From: Candidatus Adlerbacteria bacterium
Lineage (GTDB): Bacteria > Patescibacteriota > Minisyncoccia > Phycocordibacterales > SBAW01
Length of the DNA stretch: 24,331 nucleotides
Direction: 5' to 3'
NCBI GenBank assembly: GCA_043784715.1
Contig: JAYVXZ010000029.1
Location: 1-24,331, forward strand
This document shows positions 5,117 through 20,800 of the stretch, piece by piece. The notes under the pieces were generated by a model. The model did no database searches, was not told where the DNA came from, and was given only the letters and a program-made list of their open reading frames with translations. Position 1 is the stretch's first letter, and each line of letters opens with the position of its first letter. A program made the translations under genes and the position numbers.

Positions 5117-6151
5117 TTAGTATGCGAACGGAGTTGAAGCGAAGTTGTTGGATGCTTGTTCGCCACGGGTGATGTTTGAGTCATCAACCATAATTGAGAA
5201 GGTCTTTACATTGCCACCGTATGGATTGCTCGTGTCGCAGTAGTAGCTGTCGCACCCTGCTTGAGGGATATCGAAGCCCATGGTGTAGACGATTTTGTCG
5301 CCCGGGTACATCTTTTGCTGCGGTTGCGAAAGGAAGGTGTACATAGGGTCCGTCGGAAGGTCCGACGTAAACGTCCAGCCTGAACGCGCCACGTTCGTGC
5401 CGATGTTTTCGATAACGAACTGCGCAACATAGCGACCGTTGGCAGCAGGCGTAACCGAGAGGATGCGGACCGCGAGGTCGCTTGCACCATAGAGGTAACT
5501 GGTGCGGCCCGACGCGGTGTAGTTAGTTGAAGGAGTGCGAGGAGTCGCGACCGTCTTCACTTTGACCGGCGCAGGAGTAGGTACGGGAGTGGGTGTAGGT
5601 TTTGCAACTGGGGCAACCGGCGTTGCTGTTACAGCTGCTGCTTGGTGCGTTGGATTGACGGTCACCGAGCCGCTCGTGCTCGACGCAGTCATCTTGTTGT
5701 CTGCAAGGCGGTTGGCCGCAATGGTGAAGGTTGTCGTCACCGGCTGTGCTGTGTGGAGTACCGGGATAAGCTGCATGCTTTGCGTCGCGTTAGTGAAGTT
5801 AAATGGAGTGTTGCACGGCACGATTTGCATCTGGCCAGTTGGCACCGGCGCTGCGAAGGTGAGACCCTCGGCACATGCGTAGGAGATAACAAAGCCGTGA
5901 TTACCGCTACCATTCTTGTGTGCCCACGAAAGGGTAAACGGCTGGTCGGACGTGACTGCACTTGGTTGTGAAATCACCACCTGCTCTTGAGAAGTGCTCG
6001 AAGACGAGCCGCCGCCAAAACTGTTAAAGAAATCCGGCAAACCAACAACAAGTTGGATAATACCCCACGCACCCAGCACCAAAATAGCTATTAATCCAAT
6101 AATTGCGACAGCGCGAAGCGCCGAATCCTTAAATCCTGTTCTCTCTGACAT
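5117..6151 (-). CDS. N-terminally membrane-anchored surface protein: Ig-like domain, Pro/Thr linker, C-terminal CARDB-like domain
   Basis: TM AVAIIGLIAILVLGAWGIIQLVV; FTLSWAH Ig-type strand; PTPTPVPTPAP linker; SDLAVRILSV...QFVIENIGTN...PGDKIVY CARDB-like pattern. Confidence 0.75.
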   Translation of the reverse strand: MSERTGFKDSALRAVAIIGLIAILVLGAWGIIQLVVGLPDFFNSFGGGSSSSTSQEQVVISQPSAVTSDQPFTLSWAHKNGSGNHGFVISYACAEGLTFAAPVPTGQMQIVPCNTPFNFTNATQSMQLIPVLHTAQPVTTTFTIAANRLADNKMTASSTSGSVTVNPTHQAAAVTATPVAPVAKPTPTPVPTPAPVKVKTVATPRTPSTNYTASGRTSYLYGASDLAVRILSVTPAANGRYVAQFVIENIGTNVARSGWTFTSDLPTDPMYTFLSQPQQKMYPGDKIVYTMGFDIPQAGCDSYYCDTSNPYGGNVKTFSIMVDDSNITRGEQASNNFASTPFAY

Positions 6152-6179: not shown

Positions 6180-6208
6180 TTGTCAAGAGTTGTAAACAAT
6201 GGTAAAGT
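6180..6208 (+). promoter_or_regulatory. Sigma70 promoter for the sortase gene
   Basis: TTGTCA-17-TAAAGT with TGG extension. It overlaps the ATG at 6199, which argues for a start at 6238. Confidence 0.65.
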
Positions 6209-6237
6209 ACTTTTACAAACGCGAACGTCGCGACATT

Positions 6238-6969
6238 ATGGCAACACGAAAAGGCGTTATCAAGGAAGTTACAGCCCGCAGCGGCTCATTCTCGCTCGTT
6301 TTTTTGCTGTTGTTCGGGATGACCTTTGGTTTTTTGGCGCTCGTGGGTGCAACGCCAGACGCGCCCGGAACAACAAAGGACTCCGACCTAGCGCTCAACG
6401 GAAATGACACGCAAGTACATCCTCCCGTGGCAAACTCGGTAACTCCACAAACATCTCCAACGCCGCAAGGCTCGCAAACACAGCCAAACCAATATACTTC
6501 GCCGACACCAACCCCAACATCAAGCGGACAGTTGCCGACGCGTATTCTCGTCAAAAAAATTGGCTTAGACGTGACGGTCGCTAACCCAAACTCAACCGAT
6601 GTCGACGTGCTCGACCGCTACCTCCTCAAGGGGTCGGTGCGCTACCCAACCTCGGGGCTGTTGGGCCAAAACGGGACAGTGTTGCTTTTTGGCCATTCGA
6701 GCTACTTGCCAATCGTACACAACCAGGCCTACAAAGCCTTTGATGGCATCCAAAATCTTAAACCAGGGGATATAATCAGCGTCTATTCAGGCAGTGAGGA
6801 ATATCAGTTTAAAGTCACCGAAGTTAAAGTTGCGGACGCAAACAACGACATCATCGAGCTGCCACAAGATGCTCAGCACCTGACCCTCGTGACCTGCGAC
6901 TCGTTTGCGTCCAAAAGCAACCGCTACGTAGTGACAGCAGATTTCGCGGGTAGCTATGCGCAACGGTAA
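6238..6969 (+). CDS. Sortase (peptidase C60 family), membrane anchored
   Basis: N-terminal TM (FSLVFLLLFGMTFGFLALVG), P/T/Q linker, catalytic His (FGHSS), FxxLxxLxxGD-like FDGIQNLKPGD, LTLVTC Cys and NRYVV Arg. Confidence 0.93.
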   Translation: MATRKGVIKEVTARSGSFSLVFLLLFGMTFGFLALVGATPDAPGTTKDSDLALNGNDTQVHPPVANSVTPQTSPTPQGSQTQPNQYTSPTPTPTSSGQLPTRILVKKIGLDVTVANPNSTDVDVLDRYLLKGSVRYPTSGLLGQNGTVLLFGHSSYLPIVHNQAYKAFDGIQNLKPGDIISVYSGSEEYQFKVTEVKVADANNDIIELPQDAQHLTLVTCDSFASKSNRYVVTADFAGSYAQR

Positions 6970-7112: not shown

Positions 7113-8618
7113 ATGTCCAGTACAGCAGTCCGAGCCTCCTCGCCTAAGGTTGTTGCGCATTCAATCGTAGCTGCCAGCAATGGCAGCCCGATAAAGATAC
7201 TCCTCATTGGGAACGACGTCGACGGTAAAGAGCTTACATATATCTGCACTCGAGCCCCGATCAATGGCACGATTGTCGTGACACCCGGCACGAACGGCAA
7301 GGAACTTACCTACACGCCAAATCATGGCTTCAAAGGTAATGACTTGTTCACGTACGTGGTGAACAACGGCACCGATGATTCTTCACCTCAGACAGTGACT
7401 GTCGAGGTCAAAGCTTCGGCTACAGCGACACCTCCTGTACCCCCACCTCCAACAATAAAGCTAACAGCCACTCCAAGAGATGTGGTGTGCGTTGTTGACT
7501 CATCCGTGAAGTTTACAGTTGTGGGCACAGGCCCAAGTGGGATGTGGTACGAGGTGAAGGATAAACCTTCACATGGGACAGTGACGAAAGACATTTCCCA
7601 AAAGACGGACGCGAACGGCTTCACCTACACTCCGAAGCCTGGCTACAGTGGACCTGACTCGTTCACCTATGTGGTGAACCATGGTACAGCGAAGTCTGAC
7701 CCTGCTACGGTGACCATCAAAGTTACTGCGGCAGCTACTCCGATACCTCCGATGGTTCCGACTCCGGCTGTAACACCGGTTGGAACCACCACTACGACCA
7801 CCACCACAAAGGGTGACCGCATGAAAATCTGGTGGAAAAAGCCGGGAAATAAGCTTAAGCTCTGGAAAGCATTACCCGTTTTGCTACTTGTCGTTGTGGT
7901 TTTGTTTTTCTTGCCGGCAATGTGCAGCGGCCCAACGCCAGTGAGCGAGAAGAGAAGTATGGAAATACCGCCGCTCAACTCGCCTCGTGCGCCTGAATCG
8001 ACTATGGATCCATTCCGCGGTCGGCAACCGGCGACCCTATCTGAATCTTCTTCATCAAGTGAGCTGACTCAGACGTTGAAGGATGGGTTTGCGAGCATGA
8101 CCAAAACTCTTGAAGGAATTGTTGGTGTCCAAAACCAACACGGTGTGGCCATCAAAGGCCTCACGACCGGTCAGGAGGAATTGAGGAAGGATGTTGCTGA
8201 CATTCGCAACAAGGTCGACAACCACGGCGCAAGATTGGAGTCGATCGAGACAGGGAAAGAAGCTGCCCCGAACTCCAACCCGCTCTTTGGTTCCCTAACT
8301 ATTCCTCGGGATGAATGGAAGCTGAATCTGCCTCAACCACCGGTGGTAGCAGCCAGGCCGACACCGCGTACGCAACCTGTGGTTCGCGAGCCTGTCCCCT
8401 CTGATGACTACCGCAGCCGCGCCTATGAAGGTGGGGGACCGGTGGTTGGCTGGGGCGCACGTTCTCAAGGATCACAACAGGTGCAGGTGGTTGGACGTTA
8501 TTCCAACGGCTCTGTTGCTGTGGTAAACAACCTTCCTCCCGGCATGCGTGCGTGTGGTATGCCAGGAAATGGTCACGAAATCGCGGCTCGGCTCCGCGCA
8601 ACTGGCAGTGCTTGCTAG
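7113..8618 (+). CDS. Membrane protein with two N-terminal Big_9/cadherin-like Ig repeats, a central TM, a coiled coil and a Pro/Gly-rich C-terminus
   Basis: Two repeats ending YTPxxG[FY]xGxDxFTYVVNxGT; TM LPVLLLVVVVLFFLPAM; heptad-like stretch ELTQTLKDGF...ARLESIE; no N-terminal signal peptide. Confidence 0.8.
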   Translation: MSSTAVRASSPKVVAHSIVAASNGSPIKILLIGNDVDGKELTYICTRAPINGTIVVTPGTNGKELTYTPNHGFKGNDLFTYVVNNGTDDSSPQTVTVEVKASATATPPVPPPPTIKLTATPRDVVCVVDSSVKFTVVGTGPSGMWYEVKDKPSHGTVTKDISQKTDANGFTYTPKPGYSGPDSFTYVVNHGTAKSDPATVTIKVTAAATPIPPMVPTPAVTPVGTTTTTTTTKGDRMKIWWKKPGNKLKLWKALPVLLLVVVVLFFLPAMCSGPTPVSEKRSMEIPPLNSPRAPESTMDPFRGRQPATLSESSSSSELTQTLKDGFASMTKTLEGIVGVQNQHGVAIKGLTTGQEELRKDVADIRNKVDNHGARLESIETGKEAAPNSNPLFGSLTIPRDEWKLNLPQPPVVAARPTPRTQPVVREPVPSDDYRSRAYEGGGPVVGWGARSQGSQQVQVVGRYSNGSVAVVNNLPPGMRACGMPGNGHEIAARLRATGSAC

Positions 8619-8681
8619 ACTAGCCTAAACTCGACCCGGTCGACCTCTCTTCTTGAGAAGTCTGCCGGGTTATTTGTTTAC

Positions 8682-8710
8682 TTGACAAAGCTATATATTA
8701 GTAATATAAT
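8682..8710 (+). promoter_or_regulatory. Perfect-consensus sigma70 promoter
   Basis: TTGACA(8682-8687)-17-TATAAT(8705-8710). Confidence 0.85.
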
Positions 8711-8746
8711 ATAGCTTGAAATCGTTGTTATAGAAGGAATTCGCAA

Positions 8747-9157
8747 ATGCGTCGTTTTCTTATCGTTTTGACTTGCCTAACCGGAGTAGTTGGTCTGAGC
8801 GCCTGTGCGCCCGGACAAGCAGGAAGGGTTGACTTGGGTGCCGGTCCCTTTCGGGTCGGTGTCGGTGGTGCCGGAGCTATTCCGGTTGCCGGCGGCCCTG
8901 CATACGGTCCGGGACGACCCATGATGCAGGGCGGCCCTGCTCCATATGGAGCGCCCGGTGGCCCGGATACGTCCGACCCGCTGCTAGCGCGGATGGCAGC
9001 TCTGGGTCGTCCCGAGGGCTTGAAGTTTGATGTGGCCACAAACCCCGAAGCAACAGCTCGATGCCGTGGTGACATTGTGCTGGACAATGACAACGCAGTA
9101 CCTTTACAAGGTGGAAAAGTTTACTTCCCGTACAAGTGCCTTCAGAACGGAAGGTAA
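8747..9157 (+). CDS. Small Gly/Pro-rich putative lipoprotein
   Basis: MRR + hydrophobic core + lipobox LSAC; AGAAGGA SD-like site; two further Cys near the C-terminus. Confidence 0.7.
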   Translation: MRRFLIVLTCLTGVVGLSACAPGQAGRVDLGAGPFRVGVGGAGAIPVAGGPAYGPGRPMMQGGPAPYGAPGGPDTSDPLLARMAALGRPEGLKFDVATNPEATARCRGDIVLDNDNAVPLQGGKVYFPYKCLQNGR

Positions 9158-9333: not shown

Positions 9334-10074
9334 ATGCGTAAGTTTTTGTCTATCGGTTTGCTCGCGCTGCTTGCAGCGTGCGCAACTCCACAAGCTCCAC
9401 GGCAAGCACAGCGTGTGCCTCAACCGGGACCACGCGCGCAAGCACTCGGCCCCACTTGCCAACCCGGCGAGTTGGTCCGAAACGGCCCAGCAATCTTGCC
9501 GGTCGCCGTGGTCGCGGTCGAAGAGACGCTTGCTACGATGGGGATCATAGACGATCTCCAGCGCGGCATTCTCAATAAACCGCGCCCCGAGCAGGTTGCC
9601 ATCATGTCGGATACCACCCGTCAGATAGCTATGGCGGCACACAACGGACAGATCGAGCCGTTCGCCGGTCATGCCGTCGCACGGTACTTGATCCACTGGA
9701 CAAACCCGCTACCGCCGCAACTGCCGTTCTTCGGGGGAGACAACATCTGCCGGGGCATGGTCGCGGTAGAGCCTATCACTGACGGTATCTACCAAGTACG
9801 CGTTCCGCTTGATGGCGGACAGTGGAAAGGCCAAGTTGGTCTGGTGTTCCCCCGAGAAGCTTTCGTTACCCCGCACCAACGTGCGTGGGTGTGCGTCGGC
9901 ATCGAAGGTGGCTCACACCTCGCCTACCAGCCGCCGCTTCGGGAAGGTCCCTACAAGGATATCCCTGACTTAATCTGCGGACTACCCGACCCACAAGGGG
10001 GCATCACGCTCCTGGGTCGGTCGGCTCAAACTACCAAGTTTGAGATGTTTCCATTCGTTGTCGCAAGGAGGTGA
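9334..10074 (+). CDS. Putative lipoprotein, module gene A1 (paralog of 12271-12972)
   Basis: Lipobox LAAC; four further Cys collinear with A2; GAGGT SD. Confidence 0.8.
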   Translation: MRKFLSIGLLALLAACATPQAPRQAQRVPQPGPRAQALGPTCQPGELVRNGPAILPVAVVAVEETLATMGIIDDLQRGILNKPRPEQVAIMSDTTRQIAMAAHNGQIEPFAGHAVARYLIHWTNPLPPQLPFFGGDNICRGMVAVEPITDGIYQVRVPLDGGQWKGQVGLVFPREAFVTPHQRAWVCVGIEGGSHLAYQPPLREGPYKDIPDLICGLPDPQGGITLLGRSAQTTKFEMFPFVVARR

Positions 10075-10075
10075 C

Positions 10076-10636
10076 ATGCAACGCCGACATCTGCTACAGT
10101 CGCTTGCTGTGACAGCGCTGGTGGGGCTCAACCCCCACCGCGTACTCGCAGCATCTAACGAGTTCGAATGGGTACACCCTGGCGGTGACCCGTACGATCC
10201 GGACGGAACGCAGCCTTTACTACCGGCTCTACACATTCTGAACAAGGATGGATTCATTCCACCTTGGGCGGTCGCAGAGCTGGAAGGGAAGATGTCTCGG
10301 GGAGATTTTTTCTCCGACTCAATTCCTAACACCGGCGACTACCTGTTCCACCGGATGCTTTTTAGTCACCGGAAAGTTACGGTGGCGAGGAACGTGCGGG
10401 CTCGAACACAAGACGCCGGCTGGGTCGGTATCACGCGCGAGCTGCGAGTGTATGTTGCCAGTCAAGGTGGGCTGCGCTACTATGCAGTCCTTCCGAGAGT
10501 CTGTGGCAACCTCGCGGTACGCCGGGTCGAATATGGCCGCTGTGTCCCCGACGACCGGTTGTGCGATGCGAATTGCATAGCCGACCAGTCGGAACTGCAG
10601 CGTCGGCAGTATAATCCGACCGGCAAATTTCGCTAA
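10076..10636 (+). CDS. Exported Cys-rich protein, module gene B1, with a twin-arginine-like signal (paralog of 12969-13520)
   Basis: AAGGAGGTG SD overlaps the A1 stop, so the start is 10076 rather than 10040; MQRRHLL..VLA-A signal; WVHPGGDPY...LPRVCGNLA...GRC...CDANC. Confidence 0.8.
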   Translation: MQRRHLLQSLAVTALVGLNPHRVLAASNEFEWVHPGGDPYDPDGTQPLLPALHILNKDGFIPPWAVAELEGKMSRGDFFSDSIPNTGDYLFHRMLFSHRKVTVARNVRARTQDAGWVGITRELRVYVASQGGLRYYAVLPRVCGNLAVRRVEYGRCVPDDRLCDANCIADQSELQRRQYNPTGKFR

Positions 10637-10655
10637 ACTGCCTTCTGTGTTCTTG

Positions 10656-10690
10656 GTGGGAGCCCTAACAAGCTCCCATCCCTTCTTTTG
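10656..10690 (+). terminator. Probable terminator after B1
   Basis: gtgggagc-cctaacaa-gctcccat followed by cccttcttttg. Confidence 0.6.
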
Positions 10691-10729
10691 TGCCGATTTT
10701 GGTATCGACTCAGAAGAAGGGAAGACCCC

Positions 10730-10758
10730 TTGACAGTATTAATCAAAGGTGCTAAGGT
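10730..10758 (+). promoter_or_regulatory. Sigma70 promoter for C1
   Basis: TTGACA-17-TAAGGT with TGC extension. Confidence 0.65.
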
Positions 10759-10789
10759 ATAACACATTAGTTAATAGTTACAAGCATAT

Positions 10790-12064
10790 ATGAATATCAT
10801 TAAGTCAACAGTATTTGGGCTCAGTATGGCATTTTTTGCTATCGCTATGGTCGTGAGCACCCCAGTAGCGCACGCTCAGTGGGATGGGAGTGGGTTTGAT
10901 AGCGGCACTTTTGACGGCGGCGGATGCTGCAGTGTCGATGCTGGAGTCACTGACTTCGGCGGCGGCGTATATTCTCCGGATTTCGGCGGCGGTGTTTACT
11001 CACCTGACTATGGAGGCGGCGTATATTCTCCGGACCAGGGCTATGCTCCTGGTGGTTACACGCAGGGCGGATACAGCTCTCCCGGCTACTACGGTGGGAG
11101 CTCATCGTACTCATCTCCTTCGTACTATTCTTCGACACCTTCATATTCTTCTAACTATGCTCCGTATCACAGTAGTACGTATGCTCCGACTACGAGCTCG
11201 ACTTTCGCTCCATACACAAGCTCTGTGTACTCTCCATACACTCACACTGTTCGCGACAATGGCAACTCTTGCATTACGCCGGGAAGCTGCTCGACTGATA
11301 GTCACAACGATAATCACACAACGACTACCACTCGCGACAACGGCAACACCAGCACGTGCACCAACCCATACAGCTGCTCGACGACTACGACGACCAGCGT
11401 CCACGACAACAACAACACGATCGACAGTAACAACTCTTGCGTGCAACCGGGTTCCTGCTCGACTACCACCACGACGACCGACAGTCACAACACGACTATC
11501 TCGAGCCCAACGACTATCAATAGTCCTATCAACATAACTTCAAGCAACCCTCCTGCAAGTCAGACGCAGATAATCTACAACAACCCTGCGCCACAGCCCG
11601 TCAGCTATTCCTACACCAGCCCAACACCCACACCGTATGTTGCGCAACAGCAGCAAATAGTTGGCGGCGTCGCCCAGCAGCAGCAATATGTTGGCGCGGT
11701 AGCACAGCAGCAAGTGGTTTACCGTGCGCCTCGTCCGACAGTACCCTATGTGACATTGTCACAGGTGCCGTACACCGGACTTGAACTTGGGCCAGCAGGC
11801 CTAGTTATGTACTGGAGCTTCCTCGTCTTGTGGTGCCTCTTTATGGCCTACCTCATTGTAGTTAAGCAAATGCACATCAAGCTTGCCCACACACTCAAGA
11901 GCGTCGTCTTCGGCGACGAAATAGACACTGCGCCAGCAACTCCCGCTGACGAGTCGGTTGAAGTGACCGACCAGTATCGAACGCTTTCAGTATACTCAGC
12001 GCCGGAAGTGAAGAAGGTAGATGCAATCGACGACTTCATCTTGACCCAGATACACCGCGCGTAA
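10790..12064 (+). CDS. Low-complexity surface protein with a VPYTG putative sortase sorting signal, module gene C1
   Basis: Signal peptide ending VAHA; G/Y/S/T-rich repeats; PYVTLSQVPYTG (11765-11779 for VPYTG) + TM + KQMHIK. Confidence 0.85.
   Translation: MNIIKSTVFGLSMAFFAIAMVVSTPVAHAQWDGSGFDSGTFDGGGCCSVDAGVTDFGGGVYSPDFGGGVYSPDYGGGVYSPDQGYAPGGYTQGGYSSPGYYGGSSSYSSPSYYSSTPSYSSNYAPYHSSTYAPTTSSTFAPYTSSVYSPYTHTVRDNGNSCITPGSCSTDSHNDNHTTTTTRDNGNTSTCTNPYSCSTTTTTSVHDNNNTIDSNNSCVQPGSCSTTTTTTDSHNTTISSPTTINSPINITSSNPPASQTQIIYNNPAPQPVSYSYTSPTPTPYVAQQQQIVGGVAQQQQYVGAVAQQQVVYRAPRPTVPYVTLSQVPYTGLELGPAGLVMYWSFLVLWCLFMAYLIVVKQMHIKLAHTLKSVVFGDEIDTAPATPADESVEVTDQYRTLSVYSAPEVKKVDAIDDFILTQIHRA
10952..11032 (+). 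repeat. 3 x 27-bp coding tandem repeat (D[FY]GGGVYSP)
   Basis: gacttcggcggcggcgtatattctccg and two synonymous variants. Confidence 0.9.
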
Positions 12065-12085
12065 TTACAATACAATTGTTTAGTG

Positions 12086-12116
12086 CAAAATCCCCACCAA
12101 CTCGGTGGGGATTTTG
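12086..12116. terminator. Terminator after C1
   Basis: caaaatccccacc-aactc-ggtggggattttg. Confidence 0.85.
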
Positions 12117-12144
12117 GTAACTCTCTTTCTTTGTTCAAAAAATG

Positions 12145-12173
12145 TTGCATAATTTGTAAAAGTGTGGTAGAAG
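12145..12173 (+). promoter_or_regulatory. Possible promoter for A2-B2
   Basis: TTGCAT-17-TAGAAG with TGG extension; the last T of the -10 is missing. Confidence 0.35.
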
Positions 12174-12270
12174 AGTTGCAGCAGGCCCTCTGAAAAGTGT
12201 CAAGTGCATGTGCACTTCATGCGCAATACAGAGGAATAGAGTAAGACAATAATAGAGGAGGAAATGCGCA

Positions 12271-12972
12271 ATGCGTACATTTTTTGGCTTAGTGCTTGGG
12301 CTGGCGCTTCTTGCCGGCTGTTCGCAGCCGGGAGAGCGGAAGACTTACACTCGGGAAGCTCAAGCGGCTTTGAGTTTTCCTTTGGAATGTCCTCGTGGCA
12401 CGGTTATGCGTGCGAAGGACTCCGGAGGAAGATTTAAGTTTCTACGCTCCCCGGTCGAGCAAGATGGTCTGGAGGTGTTACGACTTTTGCAAACACTGGG
12501 TCCATTGCCTCGCGACCATATGGCAATGCTATATGGTGTCGATAAAGGAACAGTGCAGCCGTACCACGGTCCAGGATATGTCTTGTGGTACTTCCAAGCG
12601 CACGCTGGCTTACCGGCCAAACTGCCTTGGGTCGACCACGAAGGTGCGTGCATGGGCAGTACACCCGTTGTGCCGTCGGAGGAGCACCCAGGTTGGGTGT
12701 ACGGGAAGGTGCCGCACTGGGCGCGCGTTAATGTGCCAACCGAAGTGCTGACCCGAGGCGACGTGTGCGCGAAAGCGTATCACTTCGAAACGGTGCATGA
12801 CGTCAAACAAACGGCAGGTTCCTTTATTGGGCTGCCGGGAATCATATGCTCGCACCCGGGACATACGCAAGAGGTTTTGCAAACCGGATACGACGGCGTG
12901 CTATTCATCTTCGTTACGCCGAGCGGTGCGCCACCAATCTATAAAACGATCATCGGGAGTCCGCAGGGATGA
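12271..12972 (+). CDS. Putative lipoprotein, module gene A2
   Basis: Lipobox LAGC; GAGGAGG SD; motifs collinear with A1. Confidence 0.8.
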   Translation: MRTFFGLVLGLALLAGCSQPGERKTYTREAQAALSFPLECPRGTVMRAKDSGGRFKFLRSPVEQDGLEVLRLLQTLGPLPRDHMAMLYGVDKGTVQPYHGPGYVLWYFQAHAGLPAKLPWVDHEGACMGSTPVVPSEEHPGWVYGKVPHWARVNVPTEVLTRGDVCAKAYHFETVHDVKQTAGSFIGLPGIICSHPGHTQEVLQTGYDGVLFIFVTPSGAPPIYKTIIGSPQG

Positions 12973-13520
12973 GATTTGCTTTCTTTGGCCTTTTAGGAGG
13001 CCTGATGCTGCTCGTCTCTCCGGAGGCTCACAGCGATACGGTATGGAACAAACCGAACATTGCCCCGTACCTCACCAAGGAGGAGCTAAAAAAACCGCAA
13101 ATTGTGTTAGCCAAGATCGGCGAAGCGCTTGACATTGTGGTTGTCCAAAATCTGGTTCCCAAACTGGAAGGAGCGCGCTTGAAGGAAATGGGTGCAAAGC
13201 TCCTTCTGTCCAATGAGCGCCCGGAGGACTGCCGAAGATCGGTTATTCCTGTCGGAATGCAAATCACGATGATGAGTTCGGGCGCAGACAAATACATCCC
13301 GAATGCCATTGCCGGTCCGTGGGCAGGTATGCCAGGAGCTAACAACGGCGCGTGGATGTGCCGCGTGTCTGTGCCCAGTCGCAACCAGGAGGTATATCTG
13401 GTGATACCCGACGTATGCGCAAACATTTCGCTCATCGTGATGCAAAACGGAGTCTGTATCAAGAATCCGTATGCGTGTGATGGTGATTGTGCGACGTACG
13501 CGAAGGAGTTCGTTTCGTAA
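12969..13520 (+). CDS. Exported Cys-rich protein, module gene B2
   Basis: ATGA overlap with A2; Sec-type signal ending EAHS; WNKPNIAPY...IPDVCANIS...GVC...CDGDC. Confidence 0.8.
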   Translation: MRFAFFGLLGGLMLLVSPEAHSDTVWNKPNIAPYLTKEELKKPQIVLAKIGEALDIVVVQNLVPKLEGARLKEMGAKLLLSNERPEDCRRSVIPVGMQITMMSSGADKYIPNAIAGPWAGMPGANNGAWMCRVSVPSRNQEVYLVIPDVCANISLIVMQNGVCIKNPYACDGDCATYAKEFVS

Positions 13521-13528
13521 GTGCTTTA

Positions 13529-13572
13529 GGGCGGGAGATGCGGCGTCGTGCTGCATCCCTCGGCCTCTTTTT
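13529..13572 (+). terminator. Probable terminator after B2
   Basis: gatgcggc-gtcgt-gctgcatc core stem followed by ctcttttt. Confidence 0.5.
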
Positions 13573-13636
13573 AAGAGCCGAATGTAATCGACTTTTGGAA
13601 AGGGGCCAGAACATTATTACAAATTAGTTTACTATC

Positions 13637-15967
13637 ATGCATTCAACAACAAAGAAAATCGGGGCAGCAGCACTCTTGCTTTGGAGTGTCTTGTTTGTTG
13701 CCATTTTTATTTTTAAATCAGCGCCTGCTGTGTCGCATGTAAACTCCGGAAGCGCTCTCTCTTTCTTAGGAGTACTTGCACATGCTGAAGATGGCGGGGG
13801 ATCCGACGGCGGAAATGGTGGAGGAGCTGGCGCTGGGGGCTCAGACGCTGGCGGCAGTAATGGCGGCTCAGCTGACGGTAACGGCTCTGGTGGAGCGGCA
13901 GGAGGAGATTGTGGTGGTTGTGGATCGCCATCTGAGCCTTCTGCTCCGGTTGGACCTGGAGCTCCTATCGATGTAGGCGGTGGCGGTGCGGGTGGGCCCA
14001 TTGCGATTGCTCCTACTCCGGTACCACCTGCACTAGGGACCATACAGGGGTATAAAGTTGATGCGAATAAACAAATTGCATTTGCGGAGCAAACTATCAC
14101 AGCGCTTGGTAGCTCACAGCCACCAACGAGTGGAACGAACCCGTACTTCATCACTAACCTTGTCCCGGGCGGGTACAATGTCACTTCGACTGCGCCTTCA
14201 GGCTATAGTGTTTCATATTGTATTGGCGAAAATTGCGGCGGCGGCGGGGATGCATATACCCCAGGAAGCACGGCGCATGTTGTCGTGCCACCAAATGGTG
14301 CGGTTAACTTATGGTGGTCGTACGCGGCAATTCCTCTACCACCACCGCCAGTATGTCCTGTAGGGACGACCGGCACGTACCCGAACTGTGTAACACCTCC
14401 GCCTCCCGTGTGTCCCGGAGGAACAACTGGGACGTACCCACATTGTGTCACTCCACCTCCACCGCAGTGTCCGACGGGCACTACGGGTACCTATCCTAAC
14501 TGCGTTACGCCTCCGCCTATTCTGTGTCCTGTAGGAACGACGGGTATGTATCCAAACTGCGTTGCGCCTACTCCAGAGTGTCCTGAAGGAACTACCGGCA
14601 CCTATCCACATTGTAAAACTCCTACTCCTGAATGCCCGGTCGGAACCTCTGGCACATACCCAAACTGTGTTGTGCCTACTCCAGAGTGTCCGGTCGGAAC
14701 TACCGGCACCTATCCTAACTGTGTTACGCCAACACCCAAGTGTCCGGCGGGAACATGGGGTACCTATCCAGACTGCAAAGTTCCTACGCCAAAGTGCCCT
14801 GCTGGCACAAGTGGTTCGTATCCAAACTGTGTAACTCCTACTCCGGAGTGTCCTCAAGGAACGACGGGCACCTACCCAGACTGCAAAGTTCCAAACCCAA
14901 CATGTCCTTCAGGAACGTATGGTACCTATCCTGATTGCAAAGTTCCAAATCCAACGTGCCCAACCGGCACTTACGGCACCTATCCAAATTGTGTGACGCC
15001 AACACCAAAGTGTCCTGAAGGAACCTGGGGCACCTACCCGGACTGCAAAGTCCCGACACCCAAATGTCCAATTAGCACGAGTGGTTTGTATCCTAACTGT
15101 GTCGTGCCAACACCGGTGTGTCCAAGCGGCACGAGCGGTTCGTACCCGGACTGCAAAGTTCCGACTCCGGTATGTCCGGCTGGGACCAGCGGCACATACC
15201 CTATATGTACGACGCCAACGCCCGTGTGTCCAAATGGAACCAACGGCTCATATCCTAATTGTGTTGTGCCAACGCCAAACTGCCCGGCCGGAACAAGTGG
15301 CACATACCCAAACTGCGTAGTACCAACTCCGCAGTGTCCAGCAGGAACGACCGGCACATATCCAAACTGCGTAGTACCAACGCCGCAGTGCCCAACAGGC
15401 ACAACGGGTATGTATCCTAATTGTGTTGTACCACAGCCGGTCTGCCCGGTCGGTATGACTGGATTCTATCCAAATTGTATTCCTCCATATACGCCGCCCC
15501 CAGTTTATTCGTACCCAGTCTGTTCGATAACGGTATCCAACTCTCAGGCATCCTATGGCCAGCCGGTTACCGTTTCTTGGACAACGCGCGATACTAACTC
15601 GGGTTGGATAGAGAACATCGGCTCGGTCGGCTACTACGGCTCGGTCCAGATGACGCCTGCGTATACGACAAACTATGTTGGCCACTTTATGGGCAACAAT
15701 GGCCAGCAGGTAACCTGCTCGGCAACGGTCAATATCCAACAGCTCCCACCCCCACCACCGTTGCCGCCGATATACATGACGCCGCATATGCCATACATCA
15801 CACTGTCTCAAGTGCCGTATACCGGTCTAGCGCTGGGGGCATTCGGTAACGCGATGTACTTTGGGCTCCTCGGGCTCTGGCTTAGTCTTATGGGGTACTT
15901 GGTTGTGGTTAAGAAACTCCACCATCACCTCGGCGCATACCTGGGCCGCACCTGGTATAGCGCGTAA
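13637..15967 (+). CDS. Large Cys/Pro repeat surface protein with a VPYTG putative sorting signal, module gene C2
   Basis: Signal ending LAHA; Gly-rich segment; SdrD-B/CnaB-like domain (GTIQGYKVD...LVPGGYNVT); 21 Cys repeats; Ig-like domain; PYITLSQVPYTG (15812-15826 for VPYTG) + TM + KKLHHH. Confidence 0.88.
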   Translation: MHSTTKKIGAAALLLWSVLFVAIFIFKSAPAVSHVNSGSALSFLGVLAHAEDGGGSDGGNGGGAGAGGSDAGGSNGGSADGNGSGGAAGGDCGGCGSPSEPSAPVGPGAPIDVGGGGAGGPIAIAPTPVPPALGTIQGYKVDANKQIAFAEQTITALGSSQPPTSGTNPYFITNLVPGGYNVTSTAPSGYSVSYCIGENCGGGGDAYTPGSTAHVVVPPNGAVNLWWSYAAIPLPPPPVCPVGTTGTYPNCVTPPPPVCPGGTTGTYPHCVTPPPPQCPTGTTGTYPNCVTPPPILCPVGTTGMYPNCVAPTPECPEGTTGTYPHCKTPTPECPVGTSGTYPNCVVPTPECPVGTTGTYPNCVTPTPKCPAGTWGTYPDCKVPTPKCPAGTSGSYPNCVTPTPECPQGTTGTYPDCKVPNPTCPSGTYGTYPDCKVPNPTCPTGTYGTYPNCVTPTPKCPEGTWGTYPDCKVPTPKCPISTSGLYPNCVVPTPVCPSGTSGSYPDCKVPTPVCPAGTSGTYPICTTPTPVCPNGTNGSYPNCVVPTPNCPAGTSGTYPNCVVPTPQCPAGTTGTYPNCVVPTPQCPTGTTGMYPNCVVPQPVCPVGMTGFYPNCIPPYTPPPVYSYPVCSITVSNSQASYGQPVTVSWTTRDTNSGWIENIGSVGYYGSVQMTPAYTTNYVGHFMGNNGQQVTCSATVNIQQLPPPPPLPPIYMTPHMPYITLSQVPYTGLALGAFGNAMYFGLLGLWLSLMGYLVVVKKLHHHLGAYLGRTWYSA
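14354..15478 (+). repeat. 21 tandem 18-19-aa repeats, consensus CPxGTxGTYP[ND]CxxPTPx (54-57 bp)
   Basis: Counted in the translation: first three units 19 aa, the next 17 units 18 aa, last unit partial. Confidence 0.95.
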
Positions 15968-15972
15968 AGGAC

Positions 15973-16039
15973 TGAGGTAAGTCCGACTTGCCTCAAAAAA
16001 AGTAACAAAAACTCCGTCACTTTTTGGCGGAGTTTTTGT
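15973..16039. terminator. Two adjacent terminator hairpins between C2 and the convergent thrS
   Basis: tgaggtaagt-ccg-acttgcctca + A7, and acaaaaactccgtca-ctttt-tggcggagtttttgt overlapping the thrS stop. Confidence 0.85.
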
Positions 16040-17804
16040 TTTGGAAGTATTTTTTATACTCTTCATATGTGCGGTTCTTAATTTCGTGGGCGAGTTTGAG
16101 AACTATTTCATCAATTGAAAGTTGGCCAATTTTTCCTTTGTCGCGGCTTTCGAGAGTTGCCGCATTACTAGCAACCTCTTGGTCGCCGATAATAATGGTG
16201 TAAGGAACTTTCTCGAGTTTTGATGCGCGGATTTTTTTACCAAGCGTCTCACTCGAAGTGTCCAGTACGGCGCGTATGTCTGCGTCTAGGAGTGTCTCAA
16301 AAACTTTAGTTGCGTATTCCTGATGGGCATCGGCAATAGGGAGTACTTTGACCTGCACGGGCGAGAGCCACGTAGGGAAGGCGCCAGCATAATGTTCGAT
16401 GAGTATGCCCATGAAGCGCTCAGTTGAGCCGAGCATTGCGCGGTGTATAACTACGGGCTGAGACTTGCCCCCTTGCGCGTCGGTGTATTCAAGTTCAAAG
16501 CGCTTCGGCAAGTTGAAATCAAGCTGAATGGTCGAAAGTTGCCAATCGCGGCCAAGCACGTCTTTAAATATAAAGTCGAGCTTAGGACCATAGAATGCTG
16601 CTTCGTCTTCCGCTTCGCTGAACCGCCATCCAGTCTTCGCGACGACGCTTCTTAGTGCGTTCTGTGCCATATCCCACACCGCATCATCGCCAAGATATTT
16701 CTCTTTATTTTTTGAATCTCTAAGAGAAATCCGAACCCAAAAGTCAGCAAAGCCAAAAGTTTTGTAGACCTCAGCAATCATAGTCGTCATAAGCGTTATC
16801 TCTTTTTCAATCTGGTCGGGCATGCAAAACACGTGACAGTCGTCCTGTGTCAACGAACGGACGCGAGTGAGGCCGGAGAGCTCGCCGGATTTTTCGTAGC
16901 GATAGTTAGTGGTTGTTGCAGTGTATCGGACAGGAAGTTCGCGATAGGAGTGTGGAAGTGTCTTGTATAGCATCATGAAGTGCGGACAATTCATTGGTTT
17001 AAGATAGTAATCGTCACCGTCAATGCGCATGGGTGTGAACATTGCATCGTACTTGTCGAGGTGGCCCGAAATTTCGTACAACTTTCCTTTTGTAATGTGC
17101 GGTATCCAAATGGGTACATACCCGGCACGTTCCTGTAGTTTGGTAATGTATTCTTCGATAGTGCGGCGTAACATCGCGCCCTTTGGATAAAAAAGTGGCA
17201 AGCCGGGGCCAATTTCATCAATGATGGTGTACAACTCAAGTTCTTTTCCAAGTTTACGATGGTCGCGCTTTTTCGCTTCTTCGCGCAGGGTAAGGTATTC
17301 GTCCAAGCCTTTTTTATTTTCAAATGCGAGGCCATAGATGCGGGTAAGCATCGGGTTCTTTTCGTCCCCGCGCCAGTAGGCACCCGCCATTCTTTCGAGC
17401 TTAAAGGACTCTGCTTTGATGTCTTTGTTGGGGCGCTCCGAGTGGGCGCCGCGGCATAGGTCGGTGAAACCACCGCAGATATAGAAAGTAATTTCCTCGC
17501 CGGCATTTTGTATGTCGTCGATGAGTTCGAGTTTGTATTCGTTGTCTTTAAAATACTCGCGCGCCTCGGCATGCGTGACGACCCTGTGGTCGAATTTTTC
17601 CCACGAGGGGAGCAACTCGCGCATCTTCGCCTCAATTGGTAAAAGAGCATCTTCGCCCGTGGGCTTCTCGATGCCGAAGTCGAAGTCATAATAAAACCCA
17701 TTTTCAATAGCTGGGCCAATGGTCGGCTTCGCCCCTGGGTACAATTCCTTAATTGCCGCCGCCAAAAGATGGGCGAGTGTGTGGCGTGAGTGCTCTGTAT
17801 TCAT
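16017..17804 (-). CDS. thrS: Threonine--tRNA ligase (short N-terminus, no TGS domain)
   Basis: RHTLAHLLAAA, GPAIENGFYYDF, DLCRGAH, RDHRKLGKEL, LKPMNCP, GLTRVRSLTQDD, AAFYGPKLD, HRAMLGSTERF. The start is 17804; the longer ORF overlaps dnaE. Confidence 0.97.
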   Translation of the reverse strand: MNTEHSRHTLAHLLAAAIKELYPGAKPTIGPAIENGFYYDFDFGIEKPTGEDALLPIEAKMRELLPSWEKFDHRVVTHAEAREYFKDNEYKLELIDDIQNAGEEITFYICGGFTDLCRGAHSERPNKDIKAESFKLERMAGAYWRGDEKNPMLTRIYGLAFENKKGLDEYLTLREEAKKRDHRKLGKELELYTIIDEIGPGLPLFYPKGAMLRRTIEEYITKLQERAGYVPIWIPHITKGKLYEISGHLDKYDAMFTPMRIDGDDYYLKPMNCPHFMMLYKTLPHSYRELPVRYTATTTNYRYEKSGELSGLTRVRSLTQDDCHVFCMPDQIEKEITLMTTMIAEVYKTFGFADFWVRISLRDSKNKEKYLGDDAVWDMAQNALRSVVAKTGWRFSEAEDEAAFYGPKLDFIFKDVLGRDWQLSTIQLDFNLPKRFELEYTDAQGGKSQPVVIHRAMLGSTERFMGILIEHYAGAFPTWLSPVQVKVLPIADAHQEYATKVFETLLDADIRAVLDTSSETLGKKIRASKLEKVPYTIIIGDQEVASNAATLESRDKGKIGQLSIDEIVLKLAHEIKNRTYEEYKKYFQNKNSAKK

Positions 17805-17814
17805 ATAATCGAGA

Positions 17815-20800
17815 TTACAACGCCTTGAGAGCATCTGCAACGATGGAGTATTCGCCGTTGCGGTTATTAAGTTTGCCTTTGAGCACGATACAGGACTCAA
17901 CGCGGATGATATCTTTGTGGGTCGCGTAGTCTTTTGGGAAGACGACTGCCTCGATAGAGCCGTCGAAGTCTGCAAGCTTGATAAAAGCCATTTGGTCACC
18001 CTTCTTGGTAAGTATCACGCGCACGTTCTCAATCATCCCGCCGGTGATGGTCACCATGCCCGGCTTCACGCGTGCCTTGAGTTGGCCGAGCGTCATGTTG
18101 CGCTTAGCTAGGCGCTCTTTAAATTTGTCCAACGGGTGTCCCGAGACGTATAACCCAAGCAGCTCCTTTTCCCATAAAAGCCGCTGGTCCATGGTCGCTT
18201 CCGGTGCGATAGGCAACAGTAAGTCGGCAGGCCCACTGTCGACGCCGGCAAAAAGAGAATCTTGTGAAGCGTCTTTACCCGCGTCGCGATGATACTGCAG
18301 CAACAACTCGATAGAGTGCTGCATAGTGCCGCGCTCGCCGAGCGAGTCGAGCGCCCCACATTGTATGAGCGCCTCCAACCCTTTTTTGTTGAGGCTTTGC
18401 CCCGACACGCGCGAAAGGAAGTCGGCGAGCGAAATAAAAGGACCGTTCAATTGTCGCTCAGCGATGATAGAGTCGGCTATGCCTGTGCCAAAGTTTTTAA
18501 TCGAATAGAGCCCAAAGCGAATCGCCGAGGAGGCAGGAACAAAAGTTTCCTGGACAAAATAGTCTGGCCCGCTTGGATGCAAAGTATCCCTGACAGGAGA
18601 CTCGAGGACTTTTTGGGAGGGAAACTTTTGTTCCTGCCCTGTCACGACAGTAAAGTCGCCAAAACTCTCATTAATGTCCGGCGAAAGGATAGGCACATTC
18701 ATGCGCTTACACTCGGCAACCATAATCGAAATTGTTTCGATGTCGCCCGACTCGGCGGTAAGTACGGCGGTCATGTACTCGACGGGGTAGTTGGCTTTGA
18801 GGTACGCGGTTTGGTAGGCGACACGGCCATAGCTCGCGGAGTGCGCCTTGTTGAAGCCGTATGCGGCGAACGGTTCTATCCACGCCCACACTTCGTGCGC
18901 TTTTTTTGGCGACCAGTTGGAATGGTGGATGCAGCCCTCGATAAACTTCTCTTTTTGCTTTGCCATTTCCTCGGGGATTTTTTTACCGACGGCTTTGCGG
19001 AACTTGTCGACTTCGCCCCAGGTGTATCCAGCAATTTGGTTGGCCATCATCAAGAGGTCATCTTGGTAGACGAGCACGCCGTAGGTTTGCTTAAGTATCG
19101 GCTCGATGGCCGGGTCGAGGTAGGAGATAAGAAAGGAGTTGTGCTTACGCTTAATGTAGTCGGGGATGAACTGCATAGGGCCCGGGCGGTAGAGCGCCAC
19201 CATAGCGTTGATGTCGTGAATGGTGGTGGGCTTGAGGTCGATGAGCCACTTGGTCATGCCGGCGCCGTTAAGCTGGAAGGTGCCTTCAGTCTCGCCGCGC
19301 GCCAGCATCTCGAAGGTTTTCTTGTCGTTCATGGGGATGTCTTCGATATCGACTTTAACGCCGAGAATTTTCTCGATGAGGCCGACCGCACTCGCGAGGA
19401 TGGTGAGGTTTCGGATACCAAGAAAGTCGAATTTGGTTAGGCCAACACCGTCTTCGCCGACAGAGTACATGTCGTACTGCGTGATTATCTTGCCGCCTTT
19501 GGGGTCGAGCTGGAGTGGCGCATATTCGACAAGCGGGTTTGGAGAAATAACCACACCTGCGGCATGGACGCCCACGTGGCGCGCGCAGCCCTCAATTTTT
19601 TTGCCGAGGTCGATTATTTCGCGCGTCTCTTCCTCGTTGTTGTACATCTTTGCGAGCTCAGTGTTTTCGGCCAACGCGCGGTCGAGCGTCATAGGGAAGC
19701 CTTGCTGGCCGAAAGGAATTTCTTTGGCTAAGCGGTCGCCCAGGCCGTATGGATAGCGAAGGGCGCGCGCCACGTCGCGGACGACACCGCGCGCGAGCAT
19801 GGTGCCAAAAGTGCCTATTTGCGCGACGTGGTCGGCGCCATATTTTTCGCGGGCATAGTTGATAACCTCTTCGCGCCTGTCGTCGGCGAAGTCCATGTCG
19901 ATGTCGGGGGCCGACGGGCGCTCCGGGTTGAGGAAGCGCTCGAAGGGGATCTTATATTCAAGCGGGTCAATTTTTGTTATTTGCAAAAGATAGGTGGTCA
20001 TCGAGCCGGCGACCGAACCGCGAATGTTGGAGTAGATATTATTTTCGCGCGAAAAGCGAATGAGGTCCTCCACTACCAGGAAATACATCGCGTACCCTTT
20101 GAAGGCAATAATGCCGAGTTCATAGTCGAGTCGCTCAAGCACTTCGGGTTTGCCCACAAGCTCGCGCGCATGCATGCCGACCATGCACAGCTCGCGCAAG
20201 ACGTCGTCGGCAGTTTTGCCGGGTGGAAGTGGGAAGGTAGGGAAGACGAATGTGCCGAGCACTAACTCGACAGTGCAGCGGTCGGAAATTTTTACAGAAT
20301 TTTCAAGTGCTTCCGGATAGAGCTCGAACAGCTCAGCCATTTCAGCCGCGCCGCGAAAGGCGTAGTCTTCTTCCATTGGATTTTCCTCGACAGCCTGAGG
20401 GTCTCCTATTTTGCGCAAGGTTTGCCACGCCAGACGGTCGTCGCGGTCTATATAGTATGTCTCTTGGCTCGCAACGAGCGGTATGTCGTGCTTCTTTGCG
20501 AACGCCGTTAGCACTTCGACCGTTTGCTCATGACCGTCGAGCTCTTCGTGCATCGAGAGTTCCAAAAATAAATTCTCTTTACCAAAAATACTCAAGTAGT
20601 CGCTCAGTGTGCGCTGTGCTTTTTCTTCGTCACGAGCGCGCAGCGCTGCCGGAATTTCGCCATGTAAACAGGGTACGACTGCAATTAATCCTGCTGCATG
20701 TTCGCGCAGCGTATCGCGCGTCATCGTGGCGCGACCCTCGTGCTCGGTCGTATAGGACTTGGTGACTAATTTCAAAAGGTTGCGATAGCCTGCGTCATTT

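Follow-up and report, generated by a model that had tools for sequence, protein, structure and literature searches.

A putative [VI]PYTG sorting module paired with its own sortase lineage in Paceibacteria of the candidate phyla radiation

Introduction

What do two proteins with unrelated passenger regions have in common when both carry nearly the same twelve residues, PY[VI]TLSQVPYTG, in front of a similar membrane helix? The two proteins, C1 and C2, are encoded in one locus of a Candidatus Adlerbacteria bacterium, and the stretch of DNA analysed here (24,331 nt; the window) is contig C29 (GenBank JAYVXZ010000029.1) of its draft genome, which comprises 0.82 Mb in 133 contigs and is 84% complete. 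A first-pass annotation had read the shared residues as an extended sorting signal dedicated to one sortase clade. Our comparisons make it probable that they belong to the genus version of an order-wide sortase-type module in Paceibacteria-class bacteria of the candidate phyla radiation (CPR), and that this module serves as substrate signal for a sortase lineage of its own, clade I, represented here by P0005; its cleavage, its acceptor and the role of the protein tail are what we infer from sequence.

CPR bacteria are tiny, largely uncultured and believed to live attached to other cells, so that surface building is central to their biology, yet almost unknown. Sortases have been noted as frequent in CPR genomes (PMC6744442). 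The full-text literature returned nothing relevant on PYTG together with sortase, on sortase in Patescibacteria or Parcubacteria, or on internal sorting signals. The concern that an existing model might already cover the module was also checked: no paper that we found and no curated Pfam or NCBIfam model describes CPR sortase signals or the module.

Results

C1 (P0001, 424 aa; 10790..12064, + strand) consists of a signal peptide, a Lys-free ectodomain rich in S/T/G/Y/P, the module and a cytoplasmic tail. Its motif, PYVTLSQVPYTG (aa 319-330; 11744..11779, +), would be cut by a sortase between T329 and G330. The membrane helix read from the sequence (aa 340-358) occupies 11807..11866 (+) together with Lys359, and the cytoplasmic tail (aa 360-424; 11867..12061, +) terminates in the conserved peptide D-D-F-I-L-T-Q-I at 12023-12061. 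C2 (P0002, 776 aa; 13637..15967, +) has an N-terminal signal/anchor, a Gly-rich region, about 25 CPxGTxGTYPxC repeats, one immunoglobulin-like (Ig-like) domain, the module and a 17-residue tail; translation places its motif, PYITLSQVPYTG (aa 719-730), at 15791..15826 (+) and its helix (aa 740-758) with Lys759 at 15854..15913 (+). In both proteins VPYTG is followed by a 9-residue spacer, a 19-residue helix and then K (C1) or KK (C2), i.e., pentapeptide, hydrophobic segment and basic residue(s) come in the classical LPXTG-type order, and both proteins carry an N-terminal signal. PYTG is followed by 94 residues in C1 and 46 in C2, and the module Lys by 65 residues in C1 and, after K759, by 17 in C2; the C1 string that the first-pass annotation quoted up to VVK had been cut early.

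The shared 12-mer and the similar helix are borne out by translation, and so is the lack of relationship between the passenger regions (best BLASTP E 3.0), which contrast a low-complexity S/T/G/Y/P-rich ectodomain with 0 Lys in C1 with a Cys-loop repeat array holding 48 Cys in C2. C2 has 12 Lys. The 12-mers differ at a single position, V or I, as had been stated. The number of synonymously different codons among the 11 identical residues is 7 (P, Y, L, S, Q, Y, G) instead of the 9 given earlier, and 4 residues (T, V, P, T) use the same codon. Across the whole 41-codon modules (11744-11866, aa 319-359 in C1; 15791-15913, aa 719-759 in C2) 26 residues are identical, and 13 of them keep the same codon, 3 of these being Met or Trp with a single codon. 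The remaining codons mean that 13 of the 23 identical ones free to vary synonymously do differ, therefore the two modules are old copies held by selection on the protein, and the argument for long-term purifying selection survives the corrected count. A profile built from C1-family modules of other organisms, with C2 left out, matches C2 at 58.5 bits (E 2.8e-20). Profile searching was used because the C2 end is too short for a word-indexed search, in which residues 712-776 gave no match at E 10 or better against 5.8 billion sequences. In the six-frame open reading frames (ORFs) of the genome (0.82 Mb), VPYTG occurs at two sites only, those of C1 and C2.

The sortase encoded in the window, P0005 (256 aa; 6199..6969, +), starts with a short cytoplasmic N-terminus and a membrane anchor, followed by a linker rich in P/T/S/Q and the catalytic domain. 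It scores 72.6 bits with the Pfam sortase family PF04203 (cut-off 26.6), and 74.2 bits when the genome was searched. The catalytic His, Cys (TLxTC) and Arg (H75, C142 and R151 in the domain alignment) do not vary among 34 clade-I members, and P0005 reads LFGHSS, LTLVTCD and NRYVV around them. Its AlphaFold model, with a predicted local distance difference test (pLDDT) score of 93.8, shows the eight-stranded sortase beta-barrel fold, and Foldseek found SrtA, SrtC, SrtD and SrtE structures about equally close (E 1e-9 to 1e-8, template modelling score 0.6-0.69, 15-27% identity). Judged from its sequence and model, the enzyme looks active. It stays under every NCBIfam class cut-off (score/cut-off: class E 39.6/160, class D 34.9/165, class C 31.1/160, class GN 34.8/158, TIGR01076 39.2/39.35). 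The genome has three sortases in total, the one of clade I with its two PYTG proteins and two others beside LPNTG and TPNTG proteins. A complex prediction for sortase residues 20-256 with C1 module residues 306-368 scored 0.01 without controls, which speaks neither in favour of binding nor against it.

The suggested census of motif against sortase presence was run on 401 genomes of the bacterium's order, a sample that includes the unpublished genome G636 as one unit in the counts. The module was found in 87 genomes, a sortase in 182 and both in 84; a direct search recovered a sortase in two of the three exceptions, which brings the agreement to 86 of 87 module genomes. Since the first sortase census had overlooked these two, the tallies of the large scans are lower bounds. 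Profile A2, built for clade I with His, Cys and Arg invariant, finds a clade-I sortase in 150 of the 401 genomes, mostly in single copy. A full clade-I sortase is present in 82 of the 87 module genomes and a fragment ended by the contig end in one more; four genomes are left, all of them fragmented assemblies in which the module lies close to a contig end or on a small contig. Adjacency gives the same picture. Of 40 module sites, 34 have a clade-I sortase, upstream and on the same strand in 33 of these, with a gap of at most 300 nt in 17; the six sites without one either reach the contig edge or have the sortase on another contig. Conversely, when clade-I sortases were taken as the starting point in genomes missed by the module profile, 16 of 20 loci had a downstream protein with L-x-Q-[VI]-P-[YA]-T-G and a helix.

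The sortases at 40 other loci score 16-41 bits against the profile of module-linked sortases, whose own scores are 175-219 bits, and beside them are proteins with classical [LFMT]PNTG signals, in which 33-44 residues follow the motif. In a tree of 68 sortases, a 100/100 split separates 39 rows (37 PYTG-adjacent, the window's sortase included) from 29 rows (12 xPNTG-adjacent). The claim of a signal dedicated to one sortase clade is thus strongly supported by comparative genomics, through co-occurrence, adjacency and the tree. A class-wide census with a C1-biased profile picked up 6 of 401 genomes: five belong to the same order, and the sixth is a spurious helix-only match; as such a profile misses diverged modules, this census sets no bound on the true range. 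In what follows, L-numbers denote extracted loci and G-numbers genomes, G000 being the source genome of the window. Loci of the second clade (L081-L119, including L113 and L112 on contigs C63 and C68 of G000) have an invariant Asn at the usually free X of [LFMT]PNTG. Sortase domains also occur in long frames of 454-470 aa (family f9: G537, G607, G715, G758), 781 aa (G406:C1) and 4096 aa (G624:C11), which may be fusions.

The alignment of 46 modules delimits the conserved element. PYTG is near-invariant, the lone variant being VPDTG in L092. Counted from the Pro of PYTG, the families share a hydrophobic residue (-6) and then L (-4), S/T (-3), Q (-2) and V/I (-1). Order-wide, the helix retains a conserved Trp and [AS]-Y near its inner end, so that the order-wide core reads h-x-L-[ST]-Q-[VI]-P-Y-T-G (h, hydrophobic) followed by a helix with these residues. 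Within the C1 family, nine positions of the helix (Y, W, F, L, L, W, A, Y and L) each reach at least 90% conservation. The upstream PY at -8/-7 is confined to the genus of the window and the C1 family, likewise most of the helix pattern MY..L.LW...M.YL.VVK. The idea of a longer element was therefore right in kind, with conservation on both sides of the pentapeptide throughout the order, and right only in part in its extent, because the order-wide core is shorter than proposed. Motif variants adjoining clade-I sortases include a tandem of LSQTPYSG and LSQLPYTG, VPATG and VPDTG (L129:7131-8849, L135:7796-8848, L092:845-2371).

The position of the module within the protein was the part of the first-pass picture that changed most. 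A C-terminal sorting signal fits C2 only; the module is normally internal, in C1 as well, and followed by a conserved cytoplasmic tail. A search with the last 120 residues of C1 gave 85 matches. In public databases, relatives of the genome go under Paceibacterota, Parcubacteria or Patescibacteria. The 44-column module profile A1, run against 1.84 billion cluster representatives at 50% identity, gave 850 matches at E<=0.001 and 228 at E<=1e-10, and the best 150 of the 850 all show the C1 layout. At least 196 retrieved proteins with this layout make up our C1 family set, and 192 of the 196 have more than 60 residues after PYTG, while 190 end in D-x-F-h-x-x-Q-h. For the 43 ORFs outside the window, the number of residues after the module is at most 20 in one, 21-49 in three, 50-150 in 19 and more than 150 in 20, and sub-families of module proteins show conserved tail ends of their own.

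C1, with 65 residues past Lys, lacks the extreme C-terminal position with a short charged tail, and C2 with 17 is borderline. The same-genus orthologs of C2 (L044, 609 aa; L045, 544 aa) retain tails of 53-62 residues with a D-x-F-I motif. A hidden tail or frameshift behind C2 was considered and rejected: the three frames of 15880-16140 hold no D-x-F-I tail, there is no long A run past the helix and thrS starts 50 nt on. On sequence grounds, C2 is a tail-less derivative that would behave like a classical C-terminal signal. At L044:12349-12678 (G729), a 109-aa ORF right after the sortase keeps the C1-type helix and a D-x-F-L tail, has lost the passenger and reads LHTG in place of PYTG; it resembles a decayed copy.

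The sortase gene is accompanied by a divergent gene, P7 (P0007, 344 aa; 5117..6151, - strand), whose product has an N-terminal membrane helix and two Ig-like beta-sandwich domains; its AlphaFold model (pLDDT 79) shows helix 6-37 and two beta domains. For this model, Foldseek returned nothing beyond generic tandem Ig-like folds, among them antibody Fabs, C-terminal barrels of transglutaminase and RbmA, and so offers no clue to its function. P7-like genes stand beside clade-I sortases in 50 of 60 loci (32/40 and 18/20) and beside other sortases in 0 of 39, the lone match in that 40-locus set being L099, itself a clade-I carrier. The island of gyrB, P7, sortase, module proteins, thrS and dnaE is syntenic in six same-genus genomes, and the window has the corresponding arrangement of P7, the clade-I sortase and then C1 and C2 downstream on the sortase strand.

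Two tandem three-gene units occupy 9334-15967, each with a lipoprotein (A), a secreted protein whose tail is rich in Cys (B) and a VPYTG protein. Lipoprotein A1 (9334-10074) and the Cys-tail protein B1 (10040-10636) lie directly upstream of C1 (9334..10636, +), and lipoprotein A2 (12271-12972) and the Cys-tail protein B2 (12969-13520) directly upstream of C2 (12271..13520, +). The two B proteins are similar (B1 to B2, E 1e-6), the two A proteins weakly so (A1 to A2, E 0.003). In the same-genus loci L043, L044 and L045, module genes likewise follow an A/B pair; membership of the A and B proteins in the sortase system is uncertain. The stretch 7113-9157 encodes P0006, with two Big_9 Ig-like domains, no signal peptide, a Lys-flanked helix and a 230-residue tail, and the small lipoprotein P0009. 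The two occupy the spot that the PYTG substrate takes right after the sortase in other families, and they have no counterpart in six same-genus loci, which suggests a genome-specific insertion. The thrS frame has 660 aa in the window (16017-17999) vs. 406-427 aa in five same-genus genomes (L041-L045), which match from residue ~240, and a separate small ORF in L043 and L044 matches the thrS N-terminus; the N-terminal part may have been split or lost in the L041-L045 genomes.

Discussion

We propose that the general module would comprise h-x-L-[ST]-Q-[VI]-P-Y-T-G, a spacer of about nine residues, a helix with the conserved W and [AS]-Y, and a basic residue, and the predicted substrate peptide of P0005 would be TLSQVPYTGLELG. 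The modules of C1 and C2 would be homologous through an old duplication or domain shuffling and kept by purifying selection. A carrier protein would be exported by the Sec pathway and retained in the membrane by its helix; the clade-I sortase would then cleave between T and G and transfer the passenger to an acceptor, in the simplest case a precursor of peptidoglycan, leaving G-L-E-L-G, the helix and the tail as a remnant in the membrane. The genome encodes penicillin-binding transpeptidases, which makes a wall likely. In most carriers, C1 among them, a conserved cytoplasmic tail or domain is retained; the module therefore also connects the outer passenger with an inner part, and a separate function is probable for the remnant or an uncut form.

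Several observations weigh against this proposal. Of 43 carriers outside the window, 39 have an internal module with 50-427 residues after it, and the tail of C1 terminates in a conserved peptide; to our knowledge, no described sortase substrate combines an internal signal with a long cytoplasmic tail. Given the long tails of the 39 carriers and the separate tail ends of the sub-families, the module is usually a junction of outer passenger and inner part. Moreover, sortase signals do not typically show so strongly conserved a helix sequence or an invariant residue at X, and such conservation may point to partners other than the sortase. C1 and C2 sit 3.8 and 6.7 kb from the sortase, whereas most other families are adjacent to theirs. 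Finally, MraY was not found in the 84%-complete draft, hence lipid II stays a hypothetical acceptor.

The conserved inner parts allow a bolder version, which we put forward tentatively as possible but doubtful. The module could be a sortase-operated transmembrane junction, where cleavage frees the passenger from the conserved cytoplasmic part, so that display is coupled to release or activation of the remnant in an enlarged form of C-peptide signalling; or the cytoplasmic part could control the cut. The C1 peptide D-x-F-h-x-x-Q-h would in that case dock a cytoplasmic partner.

On balance we judge it improbable that the module is an uncut juxtamembrane and transmembrane anchor, with C1-type proteins acting at full length as single-pass links between an outer passenger and a cytoplasmic tail, to which the neighbouring sortase and P7 bind without cutting, or which are cut only conditionally as a shedding or release switch. 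The cytoplasmic tails or domains conserved in nearly all carriers are what such an anchor would lead one to expect, as are the helix sequence conserved well past plain hydrophobicity and P7 as a conserved third membrane partner. It accounts poorly for the near-invariant P-x-T-G core (with only VPDTG and VPATG as variants) at an exact position before the helix and basic residue, and for the catalytic triad, which is intact in 34 of 34 aligned clade-I sortases. Moreover, C2 (17 residues past Lys) and four relatives (11-36 past the module) have no tail, so the module works without an inner part.

Polymerization of C1 and C2 as pilus-type subunits, linked head to tail by the clade-I sortase in the manner of class C enzymes rather than attached to the wall, is very improbable. 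The locus does combine a dedicated sortase with two substrates, P0005 has solved structures of class C enzymes among its neighbours in the fold search, and Streptococcus pneumoniae pilin signals have V at the first motif position (VPDTG in RrgC). The C1 ectodomain, however, has 0 Lys and thus no nucleophile, most genomes have one substrate per clade-I sortase, the similarity to class A, D and E structures is equal, and the Pfam scan found no pilin domains. Hardly any credence is left for a recent duplication or gene conversion of neighbouring genes without functional constraint, as the 1.6 kb distance between the C1 and C2 genes in a tandem A-B-C arrangement might suggest, when the synonymous sites of the module are near saturation and the same module is conserved across the order and in 850 clusters (E<=0.001); given the synonymous divergence, we rejected the view that recent gene conversion alone accounts for the similarity.

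The proposed substrate-sortase pair resembles the LPXTG/sortase A system (S. aureus protein A and SrtA; PF00746, TIGR01167) in its secretion signal, TG-ending pentapeptide, helix and basic residue, and in a membrane-anchored enzyme with the His/Cys/Arg triad and the sortase beta-barrel. It differs in its motif, [VI]PYTG, where an invariant Tyr takes the place of the usually free X, and in having a conserved L-[ST]-Q upstream, a conserved helix sequence and a usually internal module with 50-427 cytoplasmic residues after it. Neither the whole C1 and C2 proteins nor their C-terminal pieces matched a Pfam model at E<=0.01 or an NCBIfam model at E<=1, PF00746 and TIGR01167 included. A sortase beside one or two substrates with a private extended motif is also known from single-target systems, such as the class GN 'marine' sortase (TIGR03784) and the LPxTATN-specific SrtD (NF058671). 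P0005, at 34.8 and 34.7 bits, falls short of their cut-offs (158 and 140) and hence does not belong to them, and the present pair differs from them in motif, in its CPR taxon and in the internal position with cytoplasmic tails.

For a helix-containing sortase remnant with a function of its own, the nearest documented precedent is the C-peptide signalling of Streptococcus gordonii, where, according to the summary in PMC11502775, the membrane remnant of an LPXTG adhesin cut by sortase A acts on a histidine kinase. In that species the remnant is the usual short C-terminal peptide, whereas here it would bear a conserved tail of 50 to >400 residues.

The window brings together two carriers in one locus, one from the large short-tailed C1 family and the other the tail-less C2, and its genome has both the PYTG and the PNTG clades. 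A private signal with its own sortase lineage gives a simple rule to predict one class of surface proteins in CPR genomes. With the xPNTG lineage, the same cells offer two enzymes of differing specificity, a natural pair for work on substrate reading by sortases and possibly for orthogonal protein ligation. If cleavage is true, the internal position before conserved cytoplasmic parts would be a new layout of sortase substrates.

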